A DNA stretch of 64,000 bases. It comes from an uncultured Sphingomonas sp. GTDB lineage: Bacteria > Pseudomonadota > Alphaproteobacteria > Sphingomonadales > Sphingomonadaceae. Both the position numbers and the translations under genes were made by a program. Where the stretch lies: contig NZ_CAXTEM010000008.1 of assembly GCF_964243315.1 (NCBI RefSeq), forward strand, positions 13,701 to 77,700. Direction: 5' to 3'. Within the stretch, counting starts at the first letter, position 1; every line of letters starts with the position of its first letter. The notes below the pieces were generated by a model. That model was not told where the DNA came from. It saw only the letters and a list, made by a program, of their open reading frames with translations, and ran no database searches. This document shows positions 16,794-47,136 of this stretch, one piece after another.

Positions 16794-18158
16794 TCAATCC
16801 GCGAACAGCAGCACCGGCGTTTCCAGATACCGCTTCAGCGCCTGGACGTAGCTTGCCGCGTCCCAGCCGTCGACGACGCGGTGGTCACAGCTGATCGACA
16901 GGTTCATGCACTTGGCGCGGACGATGTCGTCGCCGCGGAACACCGGCTTTTCGACGATCTTGTTCGGCCCGATGATCGCGACTTCGGGCCGGTTGATCAC
17001 CGGCGTGGTCGCGATGCCGCCGAGGGGACCGAGCGAGGTGACGGTGATCGTACCCCCGCCCATCTCGTTCGGCGCGAGCTTGTTGGCACGCGCCGCCTCC
17101 GCCAGCCGCCCGATCTCGGTGGCGAGCTGCCAGACGTTCCTGTCCTGCGCGTCGCGGATCACCGGGACCGTCAGGCCAGCGTCGGTCTGCGTCGCCATGC
17201 CGAGATGCACCCGGCCGCTACGCGTCACCACGCCCGCCTCGTCGTCGTAACGCGCGTTGAGCATCGGGAAATCGGGCAGGCTGCGGCAGATCGCGACGAT
17301 CATCAACGGCAGCATGGTCAGCTTCGGCCGCCCGCCGCGATTGGCGTTGAGATCGGCGCGCATCGCCTCCAGCGCGGTCACGTCGATCTCGTCGACATAG
17401 GTGAAATGCGGGATCGCGCGCTTCGATGCGGCCATGTTCTCCGCGATGCGCCGGCGCATGCCGATGACGCGAACCTGCTCGTCGTCGCGTGCGCGGCTGG
17501 CGCCGGGCGCCTGATAGCCCTGACCCGTTCCGTAGCGCAGGAACGCGTCGAGATCGGCGTGACGAATGCGATCGGTGTCGGACTTCACCCGCGCGAGATC
17601 GACGCCGAGCGCGCGTGCGCGATCGCGGACGGCGGGCGATGCGAGGGTCTTATGGTCCTCCCCAGCATGGGGAGGGGGACCGCCAGCCGTAGGCTGGGGG
17701 TGGTGGGGGGTCGCCGCGGGCGCAACGGCTTGTGGGGATTCTACAGAGCGAGTCGCTTGCGGCTCTCCTCCTCCACCACCGGCTTCGCCGGCGGTCCCCC
17801 TCCCCGTGCCGGGGAGGACTTCCTCTACGCCTGGATTCTCCGCCTCGTATTGCTCGGCCGTCTCGACCTGCGCGGGCGTTGCCGGGGCGGCGACAACCAC
17901 ATCGTCGTCGACCACCGCGTCGGTTTCGATCACCACCAATGCGGCGCCGATCGCGACCTGGTCGCCGACCTCGCCCGCCAATTCGACGACCACGCCCGAC
18001 ACCGGCGACTCCATCTCGACGGTGGCCTTGTCGGTCATCATGTCGGCGACCTGCTGGTCTTCCTCGACCCGATCGCCGACCGCGACGTGCCACGCGACGA
18101 TCTCTGCCTCCGAGATGCCTTCGCCGATGTCCGGCAATTTGAAGGTGAAGCGTGCCAT
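16794..18158 (-). CDS. bkdB: Branched-chain 2-oxo acid dehydrogenase E2 (dihydrolipoamide acyltransferase)
   Basis: FKLPDIGEGI, MTDKATVE lipoyl site, ASPAVRDRARALGVDL, TTPVINRPE, CDHRVVDG. Confidence 0.95.
   Translation of the reverse strand: MARFTFKLPDIGEGISEAEIVAWHVAVGDRVEEDQQVADMMTDKATVEMESPVSGVVVELAGEVGDQVAIGAALVVIETDAVVDDDVVVAAPATPAQVETAEQYEAENPGVEEVLPGTGRGTAGEAGGGGGEPQATRSVESPQAVAPAATPHHPQPTAGGPPPHAGEDHKTLASPAVRDRARALGVDLARVKSDTDRIRHADLDAFLRYGTGQGYQAPGASRARDDEQVRVIGMRRRIAENMAASKRAIPHFTYVDEIDVTALEAMRADLNANRGGRPKLTMLPLMIVAICRSLPDFPMLNARYDDEAGVVTRSGRVHLGMATQTDAGLTVPVIRDAQDRNVWQLATEIGRLAEAARANKLAPNEMGGGTITVTSLGPLGGIATTPVINRPEVAIIGPNKIVEKPVFRGDDIVRAKCMNLSISCDHRVVDGWDAASYVQALKRYLETPVLLFAD
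17655..17819. repeat. Family B palindromic element inserted in frame in the E2 linker
   Basis: gtcctcccc...ggggaggac termini, 165 nt; right arm ggtccccctccccgtgccggggagga also occurs in the intergenic copy ending at 20716. Confidence 0.85.
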
Positions 18159-20583: not shown

Positions 20584-20716
20584 TTCCTCTATCCCCGCCA
20601 AGGAAGGTGGCAGCGCCGAGCGCTGACCGGGGGGGCAACTCGGGCACCCTCGCACGCGGCACTCCCCCTCCACTACTCGCTAAGCGAGCGGTCCCCCTCC
20701 CCGTGCCGGGGAGGAA
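20584..20716. repeat. Family B palindromic element, intergenic copy with degenerate left arm
   Basis: ttcctc...gaggaa termini; ccccctccac...ggtccccctccccgtgccggggagg. Confidence 0.8.
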
Positions 20717-20718
20717 TG

Positions 20719-21720
20719 TCACTCCACCGTCTGTTCGATCACGCCGAAGATCGGATGGTGGCGGTCGTCCTCCGCCCAGATACGCACGACATCGCCCTTC
20801 TTCAGGAACGGCGTCTTCGCCTCGCCGCCTTGAATCGTCTCGACCGTGCGCACTTCGGCGAGGCAGCTATACCCCACCCCGCCCGCGGCGATCGGCTTGC
20901 CCGGTCCACCGTCCGCGTCGCGGTTCGACACCGTGCCCGATCCGACGATCGTGCCCGCGCCGAGCTTCCGCGTCTTCGCTGCGTGCGCGATCAGCGTGCC
21001 GAAATCGAAGGTCATGTCCTCACCCGCATCGGCGCGGCCGAGTGGTTCGCCGTTGAGATCGACCATGAGCTTGCGGTGAAGCTTGCCGCCCTGCCACCAG
21101 TCGCCGAGTTCGTCGGGGGTGACGAACACCGGCGAGAAGGCGCTGGCGGGCTTGGACTGGAAGAAGCCGAAGCCCTTGCCGATCTCCGCGGGGATCAGGT
21201 TGCGCAGGCTGACATCGTTGGTGAGCCCAACCAGCCGCACCGCCGCCAGCGCCTCGTCGCGGCCAGCGCCCTGCGGCACGTCGCCGGTTACCACGACCAC
21301 CTCGGCCTCGAGATCGCAGCCCCAGCTCTCGTCGGCGAGCGGGATCGGATCGCGCGGGCCGAGGAAGCCGTCCGATCCGCCCTGGTACATCAGCGGATCG
21401 TGCCAGAAGCTGTCGGGCATCTCCGCCGCGCGCGCCTGCCGGACCAACGCGACATGATTCACATAGGCCGAGCCGTCCGCCCATTGATAGGCGCGCGGCA
21501 GCGGCGACGCCGCGTCGTGTTCGTGGAACCGACGCATCGGGATCATCTCATGCGCGAGATCGGTTGCGAGGTTGGCGAGATCGGGCGCGACCCGGTCCCA
21601 GTCGTCGAGCGCGGCTTGCAGGGTGGGGGCGATGTGCCCGGCATCGGCGTACCAGGCGAGATCCGCTGACACGACGACGAGCTTGCCATCGCGACCGTGC
21701 TTGAGGCTGGCGAGTTTCAT
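20719..21720 (-). CDS. Fumarylacetoacetate hydrolase family protein
   Basis: MKLASLKHGRDG, SPLPRAYQWADGSAYVNH, YQGGSD, DLEAEV, NDVSLRNLIPAEIGKGFGFFQSKP. Confidence 0.9.
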   Translation of the reverse strand: MKLASLKHGRDGKLVVVSADLAWYADAGHIAPTLQAALDDWDRVAPDLANLATDLAHEMIPMRRFHEHDAASPLPRAYQWADGSAYVNHVALVRQARAAEMPDSFWHDPLMYQGGSDGFLGPRDPIPLADESWGCDLEAEVVVVTGDVPQGAGRDEALAAVRLVGLTNDVSLRNLIPAEIGKGFGFFQSKPASAFSPVFVTPDELGDWWQGGKLHRKLMVDLNGEPLGRADAGEDMTFDFGTLIAHAAKTRKLGAGTIVGSGTVSNRDADGGPGKPIAAGGVGYSCLAEVRTVETIQGGEAKTPFLKKGDVVRIWAEDDRHHPIFGVIEQTVE

Positions 21721-21803
21721 GCGGTCTCCTAGCGTTGTTTGCATCCCTTCTATCGGGGCCCGGCGCCCACGGGTAGGGGGCCGCACCGGTTTCCCAACGC
21801 ACC

Positions 21804-40107: not shown

Positions 40108-41187
40108 GTGGATGGCTGGCTGATCCTCGACAAGCCGCTCGGGCTCGGCTCGACCCAGGGCGTGTCCTCGGTCAAGCGCGCGCTGCGCCAGGGCGGCTAT
40201 GGCAAGGCGAAGGTGGGGCATGGCGGGACGCTCGATCCGCTCGCGACCGGCGTGCTGCCGATCGCGATCGGCGAGGCCACCAAGCTCGCCGGGCGGATGC
40301 TCGACAGCGACAAGGTGTACGACTTCACGATCAGGTTCGGGGTACAGAGCGATACGCTGGACCTCGAGGGTGCAGTGGTTGCGGAGAGCGACGTCAGGCC
40401 GACGCTGGCAGCGTTGGAGGCTGTGCTGCCGCGCTTTACCGGGCCGATTTCACAGGTGCCGCCGTCCTATTCGGCGCTGAAGGTCGACGGCAAACGCGCT
40501 TACGCGCTGGCCCGAGCCGGTGAAGACGTGGTTCTCGCTAGCCGCGACGTAACGGTCCACGCACTTCATTCCTCCACATTACGGGGAGGGGGACCGTTCC
40601 CGCCAGCGAATGGTGGAGGGGGCCCTCCACAAGCGGGATCGCTCGTGGAGCGCCCCCTCCACCATCCTGCGGATGGTCCCCAGCGGCAGGTCGATCATGC
40701 CCCGCATGATCGAGGATCGTCCGGGGGACGATCCGACCTGCCGCTCCGTCCCGGGGAGGAATTGGGCGAGATCACCCTCACTGCGCATGTCTCGAAGGGC
40801 ACCTATATCCGCAGCCTGGCGCGCGACATCGCGCTCGCGCTCGGCACGGTCGGCCATGTCACCATGCTCCGTCGTATCAAGGCAGGGCCGTTCGACCTCT
40901 CCTCGGCGATATCGCTGGACAAATTGGCGGAAGCCGGTATGGCGCGCGGCCTGGAACAATTACTCCTGCCATTGAGGGCGGGGCTGGACGACATCCCGGC
41001 TCTCGCGCTCGACCCCGACCAGGCAGGAGCGCTCCGACAGGGGCGTGTGCTGGCCGGGTTCGCTGCCGATGATGGCCTCCGCTTCGCGTGCATGGACGAT
41101 GTTCCGGTCGCGCTCGTCGAGGTCCGTGACGGAAACGTCCATGTCGTCCGCGGCTTCAATCTCGCGATGTCGAAGGAAAACGAATGA
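40108..41187 (+). CDS. truB: tRNA pseudouridine(55) synthase TruB with a 65-aa in-frame insertion
   Basis: [53 protein letters not shown]; GTG start. Confidence 0.96.
40568..40762. repeat. Family B palindromic element inserted in frame in truB, carrying a nested 64-nt element
   Basis: attcctcc...ggaggaat termini, 195 nt; internal ggggagggggacc, ggtggagggg, cccctccacc, ggtcccc arms. Confidence 0.88.
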
Positions 41188-41483: not shown

Positions 41484-41637
41484 GCATCCAGGATACCTCC
41501 GCTTCGATGCGGAGGCACATGCCAGCTAGCAATAAGGCGACACTGGCGGGGCCACGAAAGGCCCTGAACCGCCGCGGGCCGGCTTAGCCCGCAGATAGGC
41601 CCCGCACGCATCTGGCGTGCGGAGTGAAGGAAAATAC

Positions 41638-44010
41638 ATGTTCGATACCAAGAAGGTAAGCATCGAGTGGGGCGGAAAGACCCTCACGCTCGAGACCGGC
41701 CGCGTCGCTCGTCAGGCCAATGGCGCGGTTCTCGCGACGTTGGGCGAGACCGTGGTGCTCTGTGCGGTCACCGCCGCGCGCACGGTCAAGGAAGGGCAGG
41801 ATTTCTTCCCGCTCACCGTCCACTATCAGGAAAAATTCTCGGCCTCGGGTCGCATCCCCGGCGGCTTCTTCAAGCGCGAGCGCGGCGCGACCGAGAAGGA
41901 GACGCTGACCAGCCGTCTCATCGATCGCCCGATCCGGCCGCTGTTCCCGGAAGGCTTCTACAACGAGATCAACGTGATCTGCCAGGTTCTCAGCTATGAC
42001 GGCGAGAACGAGCCCGACATGCTCGCGATGGTCGCGGCATCGGCGGCGCTGACGATCTCCGGCGTTCCGTTCATGGGCCCGATCGGCGCAGCGCGCGTCG
42101 GCTATGTGGATGGCGAGTACATCCTCAACCCGACCAGCGAGCAGATCAAGGAAGGCGATCTTGACCTCGTCGTCGCCGCCACGCACAATGCAGTAATGAT
42201 GGTCGAATCCGAAGCCAAGGAGCTTTCGGAAGAGGTCATGCTGGGCGCGGTCCAGTTCGCGCACGTCGCCTGCCGCGAGGCCGCCGACGCGATCATCGAC
42301 CTGGCCGAGCAGGCCGCCAAGGATCCGTGGGAAATGGCCGAGCAGGCCGATCTCTCCGCGGCCAAGGACAAGCTGAAGAAGCTGGTCGGCAAGGACATCG
42401 CGGCTGCCTACAAGGTGACCGACAAGTCCAAGCGTTCGAACCTTCTCAACGAGGCGCGCGCGAAGGGCAAGGCGGCGTTCGCCGATGCCGCGCCGCAGGA
42501 CCAGATGGCCGCCGGCAAGCTGATGAAGAAGCTGGAAGCGGAGATCGTTCGCGGCGCCATCCTGAAGGACGGCACCCGCATCGACGGTCGCACCACCACG
42601 CAGATCCGTCCGATCGAGTCGATGGTGCACTTCCTGCCGCGCACGCATGGCTCGGCGCTGTTCACGCGTGGCGAGACGCAGGCGATCTGCACCACCACGC
42701 TCGGCACCCGCGACGCCGAGCAGATGATCGACGGTCTCGACGGCCTGTCGTACCAGCACTTCATGCTGCACTATAACTTCCCGCCCTATTCGGTCGGCGA
42801 AGTCGGTCGCTTCGGCGCCCCCGGGCGTCGCGAAGTCGGCCACGGCAAGCTCGCCTGGCGCGCGCTGCACCCGGTGATGCACATGAAGCAAGACTTCCCG
42901 TACCCGCTCCGCGTCATCTCCGACATCACCGAGTCGAACGGCTCGTCGTCGATGGCGACGGTGTGCGGCGGTTCGCTGTCGATGATGGACGCCGGCGTGC
43001 CGCTGAAGCGCCCGGTGTCGGGCATCGCAATGGGCCTGATCCTCGAAGGCAAGAACTTCGCGGTGCTTAGCGACATCCTCGGCGACGAGGATCACCTCGG
43101 CGACATGGACTTCAAGGTCGCGGGCACGTCCGAAGGCATCACCACGATGCAGATGGACATCAAGATCGCGGGCATCACCGAAGAGATCATGAAGGCCGCG
43201 CTCGATCAGGCGAAGGAAGGCCGCGCGCACATCCTGGCGGAAATGGCCAAGGCGCTCGACCACACCCGCGAGGAACTGTCGGCGCACGCACCGCGCATCG
43301 AGACCTTCACGATCGACAAGTCGAAGATCCGTGAAGTCATCGGCACCGGCGGCAAGGTGATCCGTGAGATCGTCGCCACTACCGGCGCGAAGGTCGACAT
43401 CGACGATGAGGGCGTGATCAAGGTGTCGTCGTCCGACACGTCGCAGATCGAAGCCGCGATCAAGTGGATCAAGGGCCTCGTCGAGGAAGCGGAAGTCGGC
43501 AAGGTCTACGACGGCAAGGTCGTCAACCTGGTCGATTTCGGCGCCTTCGTGAACTTCATGGGCGGCAAGGACGGTCTCGTCCACGTCTCCGAGATCCGCA
43601 ACGAGCGGGTCGAGAAGGTCGCGGACGTGCTGAGCGAAGGGCAGCCGGTGAAGGTGAAGGTCCTCGAGATCGATCCGCGCGGCAAGGTTCGCCTGTCGAT
43701 GCGCGTCGTCGATCAGGAAACTGGCGCCGAGCTGGAGGACACCCGTCCGGCGCGCGAACCGCGTGAAGGCGGCGACCGTGGTCCGCGCGGCCCGCGCCGT
43801 GACGGCGACGGTGGTCGTGGCCCGCGCGGCGAAGGCGGCGGTGGCCGTGGCGAAGGTCGGGGCGACCGTGGCCCCCGTCGCGATGGCGACGGCGGCCGTG
43901 GCCCGCGTCGCGACGGCGGCGGCGAGCGCGGCCCGCGGCCCGAGCGTGCGGGCGACGACGCCCCCGCGCCCGAGTTCGCACCTGCGTTCCTGAACAACGA
44001 TCGCGACTGA
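41638..44010 (+). CDS. pnp: Polyribonucleotide nucleotidyltransferase
   Basis: [53 protein letters not shown] and S1 domains, RG-rich tail. Confidence 0.99.
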
Positions 44011-46704: not shown

Positions 46705-47030
46705 CGAGTGGGGAGCTTCTGTTGCCCGGTGCTCCCCGTACCGCTGGAATCCGCTTCTGTTGCCCGGTGCGGTCCAACCGCGCTATTTTAGAGTAACTTC
46801 AGGCCGTTAAGCCCTTAGTTACGCCGCAATCGCGAGTGCTTCGTTATCGTTGGCACTTGTGTATGGGCCGTCACGGTGGTCCCATTCCGAGCAAAAGAAA
46901 GCGCTTTTCAACACACGTCGATCCTGGTTCGACCCCGTCATCGCCACCCGTTGCCGGAGGGCGGTGGTGGAGTCGCCGGGTACTGCCCCCGGGTCCGCTG
47001 CGCCTATTGTACGCAATCCTTTATCGCCAT
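46705..47030 (-). ncRNA. ssrA: Two-piece (permuted) tmRNA; outer ends approximate
   Basis: Acceptor piece ends GGCGACTCCACCA at 46965; 28-nt spacer; coding piece starts GGGGTCGAA at 46936; tag ANDNEALAIAA* at 46854-46819. Confidence 0.96.
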
Positions 47031-47136
47031 AGTCGGTTGGCCGAAGCCCGCCGACGCGACCGATATAGGCTCGCCCCCCGCGCCGTGCAAACCCCGCCTT
47101 TCGCTCGCCACAATAAAGGACCATAGCGACCGGATC

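Follow-up and report, generated by a model that had tools for sequence, protein, structure and literature searches.

The truB gene (tRNA pseudouridine-55 synthase) of an uncultured Sphingomonas sp., contained in a stretch of 64,000 nt from contig NZ_CAXTEM010000008.1 (hereafter the window, numbered from its first base), carries an in-frame insert of 195 nt within the part encoding the catalytic domain. The insert is probably selfish repetitive DNA that is tolerated and translated, and not a functional module of TruB. It comprises two nested elements, an outer element of 135 nt and a 64-nt palindrome situated in the right arm of the former. The outer element belongs to a family of G+C-rich palindromic repeats with fixed terminal arms (the arm family), copies of which are found in the Sphingomonadales. 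The evidence comes chiefly from the changes which the insert has undergone in related genomes.

The insert in truB and its history

The insert extends from 40568 to 40762, has the ends ATTCCTCC.../...GGAGGAAT and follows the codons for VTVHAL. Checks of the sequence and of its open reading frames (ORFs) agreed with a preliminary description of this DNA as to length, ends, frame and the resulting protein of 359 amino acids (aa). That description had treated the 195 nt as a single element, whereas they resolve into the following parts.

40108-41187, plus strand: truB, GTG start, 359 aa with the insert included (assigned from ORF, Pfam and fold match)
40568-40595: left terminal inverted repeat of the outer element, module A (ATTCCTCCACATTACGGGGAGGGGGACC, partly degenerate; canonical aTCCTCCCCGGcACGGGGAGGGGGACC)
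40596-40611: module B, a variable local hairpin, broken here by two substitutions relative to loci L241 and L243
40612-40663: inner inverted repeat C/C' (GGTGGAGGGGGC / GCCCCCTCCACC) around a 28-nt palindromic core; 26-nt arms, 92% complementary
40612-40623: module C
40624-40651: core
40652-40663: module C'
40664-40674: module B' hairpin (ATCCTGCGGAT)
40675-40681: first part of A', 7 nt (GGTCCCC) of the right terminal repeat
40682-40745: nested Y-shaped palindrome (Y module), 64 nt, net gain 60 nt or 20 aa; 12-bp outer stem AGCGGCAGGTCG/CGACCTGCCGCT, hairpin 1 TCGATCATGC-CCC-GCATGATCGA, hairpin 2 GGATCGTCC-GGG-GGACGATCC
40746-40762: remainder of A', the right terminal repeat (CCGTCCCGGGGAGGAAT)

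Removal of 60 nt from A' leaves an element which fits the architecture of the arm family over its full length and aligns end to end with 28 short copies; it is a member of that family. The left arm of the window copy is decaying, CCGGC having become ACATT by comparison with close relatives, and hairpin B is broken. A crude score for pairing from the ends inward was not relied on, as it under-registers B and B', the stems of which run into the flanking ACC/GGT. The predicted fold of the whole 195 nt has an energy of -140.1 kcal/mol (z -10.4).

The gene surrounding the insert appears to be functional. Two Pfam domains flank the insert, TruB_N at residues 32-155 (E 1.4e-45) and TruB_C_2 at residues 235-292 (E 5.9e-13). 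In a phmmer comparison with PDB sequences, residues 12-158 of Escherichia coli TruB align with residues 2-153 of the window protein and residues 165-238 with 219-294, the six E. coli residues 159-164 being replaced by 65 residues. In the TruB alignments GTLDP (residues 40-44), which is aligned with the E. coli D48 motif, is invariant, as are the columns of G231-T232-Y233-R235 (the GTY.R / KGTYIR motif). The best Foldseek match of the TruB model is the E. coli TruB-RNA complex 1K8W (E 4.3e-25, TM 0.72). With both domains, both motifs and the fold present, the protein belongs to the TruB family. Values of dN/dS outside the insert are 0.12-0.26 against eight relatives, which indicates purifying selection, and the gene order TK / M50 peptidase / truB / rpsO / pnp is conserved. 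Metagenome relatives that are 94% and 88% identical possess the same gene of 359 aa. The insert is also supported by an independent assembly: a 1724-nt Logan contig from a DNA run of the source organism matches 40200-40993 with zero differences.

Nine truB loci were aligned: that of the window, four from relatives whose proteins are 94%, 88%, 85% and 75% identical, and four from genomes or metagenome-assembled genomes (MAGs) at 59-74%. The left and right junctions are identical across all nine at the DNA level. Alignment of orthologues, as had been proposed, defined the empty site as a beta-hairpin turn of the catalytic domain, VTIHAL-(5-8 aa)-F.V.CSKGTYIR, and the more distant TruB representatives, mostly 293-320 aa in length, are without the insert. 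Most of 24 TruB proteins sampled in another alignment (A1) have about 45 extra residues at this site (SSPARGGGP..., the translation of the canonical element), and arm-encoded motifs occur in 108 of the 120 best TruB homologues by score. These 120 are nearly all from Sphingomonas where named, are 305-359 aa long with 27 different lengths, and are all intact. Since the same junctions recur across the genus, we consider the insertion to be old and not a recent event in the source genome; its simplest reading from these alignments is one insertion of the outer element in an ancestor of the genus Sphingomonas. The identity of inserts between distant pairs, as obtained from protein-guided alignment, is limited by the alignment itself and was not used.

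Within this shared insert several kinds of change have accumulated. The Y module is found in truB of the window and of P0001, P0002, P0004, P0006, P0024 and P0043, and is absent from the close relatives P0003 and P0012; against P0003 (locus L243) the difference is a clean 60 nt. In P0034 the module lies in the opposite orientation and encodes a 22-aa peptide corresponding to the reverse-complement translation. The inner 79 nt of the P0002 insert are the reverse complement of the segment in the window and P0001 (85-86% identity, versus 73-75% in direct orientation), the unequal hairpins B (16 nt) and B' (11 nt) being swapped and the length unaltered. Remnants left by in-frame deletions exist in P0014 (L244; 305 aa), P0071 (310 aa), P0077 (314 aa) and P0118.

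On this evidence a nested-palindrome repeat of about 135 nt entered truB at the beta-hairpin turn and was then inherited by the genus, and the 64-nt Y palindrome landed later in the right terminal repeat in the lineage of the window. The arrival of the latter by gene conversion from a composite copy is as possible as direct insertion. A copy with a net length that is a multiple of three would add a Gly/Pro/Arg-rich loop, and selection on truB would filter subsequent changes such that the frame-preserving ones survive: the gain of 60 nt, the 79-nt inversion and the in-frame deletions. That only such changes survive is expected if ribosomes read through the insert.

The arm family, its landing sites and its spread

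In the window CGGGGAGGGGGACCG occurs four times with up to 2 mismatches (0.61 expected; none of 100 shuffles reaches four) and CCGGGGAGGAAT three times with up to 1 mismatch (0.40 expected). An nhmmer profile derived from 28 copies of other genomes detects three copies here and no more, the one in truB (E 2.3e-19) and the two to which its arms had been matched in the preliminary description.

17656-17818: second in-frame copy, in the linker between the lipoyl and E3-binding domains of the E2 gene; both arms near-canonical (nhmmer E 8.5e-20)
16794-18158, minus strand: coding sequence of the host gene, E2 of a branched-chain 2-oxoacid dehydrogenase
20584-20717 (nhmmer match 20632-20715): intergenic copy, right arm canonical, left part degenerate

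A single base separates the intergenic copy from the stop codon of a fumarylacetoacetase-like gene (20719-21786, minus strand); the copy precedes the E1-alpha gene on that strand and is so placed that it might serve as a terminator or attenuator.

When one genome per species was scanned with the arm pattern GGTCCCCCTCCCCRTNNNNNGGAGGA, at least 120 stretches matched. The titles among the matches listed are of Sphingomonadales or of unclassified alphaproteobacterial or proteobacterial MAGs, and the genera among them include Sphingomonas, Allosphingosinicella, Novosphingobium, Sphingopyxis, Sphingobium, Sphingorhabdus, Blastomonas, Stakelama and Rhizorhabdus, with others. From the loci selected by their arms, together with the window, 32 complete elements were obtained, 28 short and four long. 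Alignment of the 28 short copies gives the architecture A (aTCCTCCCCGGcACGGGGAGGGGGACC, a hairpin), B (a variable hairpin), C (GGTGGAGGGGGC), a variable and often palindromic core, C' (GCCCCCTCCACC), B' (a variable hairpin) and A' (GGTCCCCCTCCCCGTGCCGGGGAGGAt). The short elements are about 120-190 nt long, and their terminal inverted repeats of 26-28 nt are fixed and form hairpins. The family is G+C-rich, and 22 of 29 short elements contain no stop codon in five or six of the six frames; given this stop-poor composition, a host ORF would stay open around any copy with a net length that is a multiple of three. The peptide encoded by the arms is of the form SSPxRGGGP ... DGPPPRAGEE. The arms are near-identical across genera, and intergenic copies and copies within unrelated genes conserve them to the same degree.

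In 0.94 Mb of fetched DNA together with the window the profile matched at 150 places, 13 of which lie within long coding-like ORFs open on both sides: five in truB, two in spurious ORFs and six elsewhere. The last six are in E2 (twice, in the window and in locus L020, at one and the same linker position), NAD-dependent DNA ligase (LigA), glycyl-tRNA synthetase beta (GlyS-beta), a biotin carboxylase of the propionyl-CoA carboxylase type and one small unassigned ORF. The colonisation of housekeeping ORFs by a sphingomonad repeat family, postulated from the window, is thereby borne out. The further expectation of many in-frame cases genome-wide is not: of some 145 non-truB copies sampled, approximately 6 (ca. 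4%) keep the frame of a coding-like ORF, four of these copies having host genes confirmed by Pfam. Among the contigs of the source organism an arm is present in about 62, and 22 of these have it at two places. A single genome is more likely to contain a handful of in-frame cases.

Two of the in-frame copies have features of their own. In L016 (912-3230; a Sphingomonadales MAG) the copy splits the HhH domain of NAD-dependent DNA ligase, Pfam HHH_2 matching at profile positions 1-34 only, before the insert. The E2 copy, which is also shared with related lineages, contains in L020 (4129-4312) an internal tandem duplication with a period of about 37 nt, in which TTCCACGGGCGGAGCGGCCTTCAC is present twice, 13 nt apart; a repeated PVKAAPPVE peptide is added and the frame is kept.

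The Y module is not confined to the arms. An alignment of at least 81 distinct copies was compiled from metagenome contigs with hairpin 2 as the search pattern, which fixes this hairpin and renders it uninformative on covariation. In the 81 copies 98% of the stem positions are paired, compared with 28-46% in slid controls, and 13 pairs display compensatory changes, with 285 doubly changed cells versus 75 ± 9 in shuffles. The number of G-T mismatches (22) is practically that of A-C mismatches (23), an equality that points to a strand-symmetric constraint on a DNA palindrome rather than on a strand-specific RNA. On the metagenome contigs the module mostly lies within other palindromic repeats, and four or more flank contexts are distinguishable: the sphingomonad arm, always as ACGG|AG...CT|GGGGACC and in both orientations; GCGAAAG|...|GGTCTC, beside CCAGCTTTCGCTGGGATGACG-type repeats; CTTCCCCGGCGAAGAG|...|CTCTTCGCCGGGGAAG; and others. 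An intergenic copy upstream of ruvC in S. silueang (L067) has the module at the same position in A', in the opposite orientation. Variants that lack hairpin 1 (L230, ~2732-2804; P0393) consist of the outer stem and GGATCGTCC-GGG-GGACGATCC only.

Different repeats are found at the same protein sites. In other lineages the TruB hairpin turn contains unrelated inserts, PLPQGER...PLRERAGV and RHPREGGD...CLRGNDE (P0121, P0123, P0137, P0145, P0158, P0209), some of which look like translated copies of other repetitive extragenic palindromic (REP) families. Repeats inside the sphingomonad truB loop have been known since 2013 from another family, and the phenomenon itself is not new: truB contains CGTC-1 REPs at residues 169-177 in Sphingopyxis alaskensis (Sala_0541) and at residues 164-190 in Erythrobacter litoralis (ELI_03525) (PMC3733652), and REPs have likewise been listed for glyS-beta, for a dehydrogenase E2 and for a DNA ligase (Di Nocera et al. 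2013, PMC3733652). The E2 linker, ENPGVEE|...|ALASPAVR, is occupied by the arm family in the clade of the window and in other Sphingomonas by a PSPLRGEGRGEG...PLPAGERE repeat or a PAKAGAQ-type repeat; the E2 copy of P0393 (Sphingomonas sp. Tas61C01) carries the reduced Y module. Either insertions are harmless at such hot spots, or palindromic repeats attract one another.

The four long elements (442-534 nt, the ~450-nt versions) have cores which encode a DUF559 protein (PF04480; E 5e-18 to 4.5e-30, 65-104 bits against a cut-off of 20.6, which places all four in the family). The ORF lies exactly between the inner inverted repeats, and its reading frame runs on through the right arm. Each of the eight DUF559 genes present in the loci selected by their arms has arms on both sides. 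Of the best 120 of 1754 DUF559 homologues, retrieved with a query that included arm-encoded residues, 107 end in the right-arm peptide (...PLHQPAAGPPPRAGEE) and 74 start with the left-arm peptide. The sequences establish an association of the arms with DUF559. DUF559 has been placed in one group with Vsr and a homing endonuclease of a group I intron (PMC3424549), and a DUF559 protein of Caulobacter, a putative Vsr-like endonuclease, has been shown genetically to cause the SOS (DNA-damage) response (PMC12907096). The short copies may be regarded as possible non-autonomous relatives of the DUF559-bearing ones, and the nuclease (Vsr-like, PD-(D/E)XK) would mobilise the short copies or home into them; it is the only candidate for a mobilising or homing activity that was found.

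A number of points tell against this account. Mobilisation of the short copies is suggested by the association only. The query mentioned above biased the ranking of the homologues towards those bearing arms. No DUF559 gene is present in the window, and the DUF559 core of locus L088 has no match at ≥80% nucleotide identity in the contigs of the source organism (X1), a result compatible with the presence of DUF559 there because the cores diverge strongly at the nucleotide level. No target-site duplication was seen in the flanks of the 32 full copies; in several copies the flanks extend the palindrome instead, and neither an empty/filled polymorphism nor a new insertion of the outer element was observed.

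Some of these same observations would fit another view of the spread, namely that the repeats are REP-like structural motifs exchanged by gene conversion at recombination-prone hot spots, the DUF559 genes being homing-like invaders and not drivers. The occupation of the TruB loop and the E2 linker by different repeat families across lineages agrees with it, as do the lack of visible target-site duplications and the flanks that extend the palindrome, the exact placement of the DUF559 ORF between the inner inverted repeats, the absence of strand asymmetry in the Y module, which fits a DNA palindrome, and the grouping of DUF559 with a homing endonuclease of group I introns (PMC3424549). Near-identical arms at many unrelated loci in many genera, however, require some copying mechanism, and we think this explanation possible but rather doubtful. 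It would alter the way in which the family spreads and leave the nature and translation of the truB insert as they are.

A two-level system of repeats parasitising repeats in the Alphaproteobacteria may tentatively be envisaged, which is itself doubtful at present: a DUF559-bearing selfish class with ORF-compatible derivatives of about 130 nt, its autonomous form being the nuclease gene between hairpin-forming inverted repeats, and a 60-nt Y palindrome, shaped as a three-way junction, that would integrate site-specifically and in either orientation into arms or centres of several unrelated families of palindromic repeats.

Translation and role of the insert

The evolutionary evidence, together with weak evidence from RNA, leans clearly towards translation of the insert. 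Contigs of 80-95% identity from three runs classed as "RNA?" (X25, X34, X35) and derived from another organism cross the left junction (40444-40604), and other contigs from these runs join a canonical right arm to 40771-40893. Structure prediction, also proposed in the preliminary description, was carried out with AlphaFold2 and a family alignment; residues 158-212, which follow strand 146-155 and precede strand 221-228, were modelled at a pLDDT of about 28. The insert is apparently a disordered excursion from the hairpin turn, predicted to be a surface loop.

Weighing against a tolerated and translated selfish insert are the following. The "RNA?" runs have a guessed RNA type, come from a relative and may contain DNA, and lend weak support; contigs from two metatranscriptomes (X23, X24) did not reach the insert. 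The homologues are the best 120 TruB by score, among which frameshifted alleles would be under-represented; the evidence from frame-keeping for read-through is strong and not absolute, as ranking by score could hide broken alleles. A structure of -140 kcal/mol within the messenger RNA might, if it forms as predicted, alter expression. Finally, conservation of the arms far exceeds that of synonymous sites (dS up to 1.2). The constancy of the arms is likely to derive from exchange with other genomic copies or from constraint on a DNA palindrome, and not from selection on the peptide.

Were the peptide itself selected, the insert could have been recruited as a functional part of TruB, an Arg/Gly-rich flexible loop aiding the binding of tRNA or a partner. 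The enzyme binds RNA, the insert is retained at one site across the genus and the arm-encoded peptides are conserved. The conservation of the arms is nevertheless just as high in intergenic copies and unrelated genes, and the inversion and the changes in hairpin length (GWWRG and LVEG variants) alter the inner peptide completely. Several lineages retain short remnants (P0014, 305 aa; P0071, 310 aa; P0077, 314 aa), the left arm and hairpin B of the window copy are decaying, unrelated repeat peptides occupy the same loop in other lineages (alignment A2; supplement of PMC3733652) and the segment is disordered in the AlphaFold2 model. A functional loop is in our judgement improbable.

Still less probable is the absence of the insert from the mature product through excision from the messenger RNA, bypass by the ribosome or protein splicing, the first two being outcomes that the preliminary description had left open. 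The extremely stable predicted fold of the 195 nt would favour removal. Yet every length variant keeps the downstream frame (27 lengths, the gain of 60 nt, the length-neutral inversion and the in-frame deletions), a constraint for which there would be no need if the segment were removed, and the "RNA?" contigs of the relative cross both junctions. The insert has no match to an intron, ribozyme or other Rfam family: at gathering thresholds Rfam reported only a tmRNA in the whole window, and in E-value mode the region 40500-40830 gave only sub-threshold, hairpin-like matches (≤27 bits versus cut-offs of 37.8-137). A self-splicing intron or ribozyme was considered and rejected from these covariance-model searches. 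An intein is implausible for an insert of 65 aa that is modelled as disordered. To our knowledge 65 aa is shorter than any known intein, inteins being longer than about 130 aa.

That the insert is an assembly artefact or the window truB a pseudogene is hardly credible, since, even though assemblers can be misled by repeats and the left arm is degenerate, an independent contig from the source run is identical over 40200-40993, metagenome relatives at 94% and 88% identity have the 359-aa gene, and the ORF, the low dN/dS (0.12-0.26) and the gene order from TK to pnp are all preserved.

Two further features were noted downstream in the window.

43751-43937, in the 3' end of pnp (coding sequence 41617-44010): an Arg/Gly/Asp-rich tail of PNPase encoded by tandem repeats of about 30 nt (2-3 copies, 71-84% matches)
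46746-47094, minus strand: a two-piece (permuted) alphaproteobacterial tmRNA gene (Rfam, 199.8 bits)

Comparison with known repeats and significance

The precedent cited in the preliminary description was that of the Rickettsia palindromic elements (RPEs), reportedly described by Ogata et al. in 2000. Like these, the arm family consists of alphaproteobacterial palindromic repeats of about 100-150 nt that occur in frame in housekeeping genes, leave the host gene intact and are read as tolerated selfish DNA (RPE-4 and RPE-6 are discussed in PMC3733652). It differs in being very G+C-rich, in having free-living Sphingomonadales as hosts, in its modular and nested construction (hairpin arms, inner inverted repeat, variable hairpins, second palindrome) and in the DUF559 ORF of its long versions; the sequences are called unrelated on the basis of description. 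The truB insert has the functional attributes of an RPE, being palindromic, approximately 100-150 nt long, in frame and non-disrupting, and the precedent is apt as an analogy, with no claim of descent.

Bacterial MITEs (miniature transposable elements with inverted repeats), such as Correia/NEMIS, ERIC and RUP, are short, possess terminal inverted repeats, have longer ORF-bearing relatives and are occasionally inserted in frame. The arm family resembles them in its terminal inverted repeats of 26-28 nt, but no target-site duplication was visible in it and no parent with a DDE transposase was found. Mosaic repeats (the BIMEs of E. coli and the RIMEs of rhizobia) are composites of palindromic modules in variable combinations. 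The Y module, in contrast, is found at one precise position of the arm in either orientation, and also inside several unrelated repeats.

The CGTC-tagged REPs share with the arm family their palindromic nature, the Sphingomonadales as hosts, the same TruB loop and similar host genes, and no dedicated transposase is known for either. They are units or dimers of 20-40 nt with an 8-9-bp stem starting AT, a 4-5-nt loop, a CGTC/TGTC/CCTC tag and a short CCA-like tail, and they encode peptides of the VIPAKAGI or CLRGND type (PMC3733652). The arm hairpin, CCTCCCCG-GCA-CGGGGAGG, has instead a stem of G+C that does not begin with A-T pairs and a loop of 3 nt, and the element of about 130 nt encodes SSPARGGGP...GPPPRAGEE, which differs from all the CGTC-1 to CGTC-4 peptides listed. 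By these features it is not a CGTC REP; a CCTC tetranucleotide does occur at the arm terminus, and a distant relationship is possible from the sequences. REPIN/RAYT systems likewise have paired inverted REP hairpins, which together make up a larger hairpin, in tens to hundreds of dispersed copies and a single-copy protein gene between repeats. The arm family is not one of them, as it lacks the GTAG tag and the only ORF found between arms is the Vsr-like DUF559, not a tyrosine transposase of the IS200/IS605 type. Vsr-fold homing endonucleases such as I-Bth0305I (PMC3424549) offer the parallel of a selfish element that contains the gene of a small Vsr-like nuclease and has flanks providing homology, but the sphingomonad DUF559 genes have no intron or intein context and their nuclease activity is putative. 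By its defining features the arm family stands outside the RPE, CGTC-REP, REPIN/RAYT and classical MITE families, the RPEs being set apart by description.

A search of the literature by topic and by literal arm and hairpin strings revealed no description of the arm family or of the Y module. Judged against that literature, the GGGGAGGGGGACC-arm family, its systematic link to DUF559, the nested Y module and the frame-preserving inversion appear to be new.

No dedicated transposase has been found for the alphaproteobacterial CGTC-tagged REPs (Di Nocera et al., PMC3733652), and the occurrence of DUF559 on the arm repeats bears on the same question of a missing transposase. DUF559 is a nameable candidate for the protein partner, and is very common in these genomes as an "endonuclease domain-containing protein" without an assigned role. 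The Y module nested in other repeats is a well-defined object which can now be searched for. At the TruB beta-hairpin turn and in the E2 linker, repeats from no fewer than three unrelated families have landed recurrently; this recurrence marks the two sites as permissive, and thus useful for protein engineering and for annotation. The insert explains the length of 330-360 aa of Sphingomonas TruB, and in-frame repeats of this kind show how much foreign sequence essential enzymes absorb. If the insert is simply tolerated, this would be ordinary biology, now well documented.

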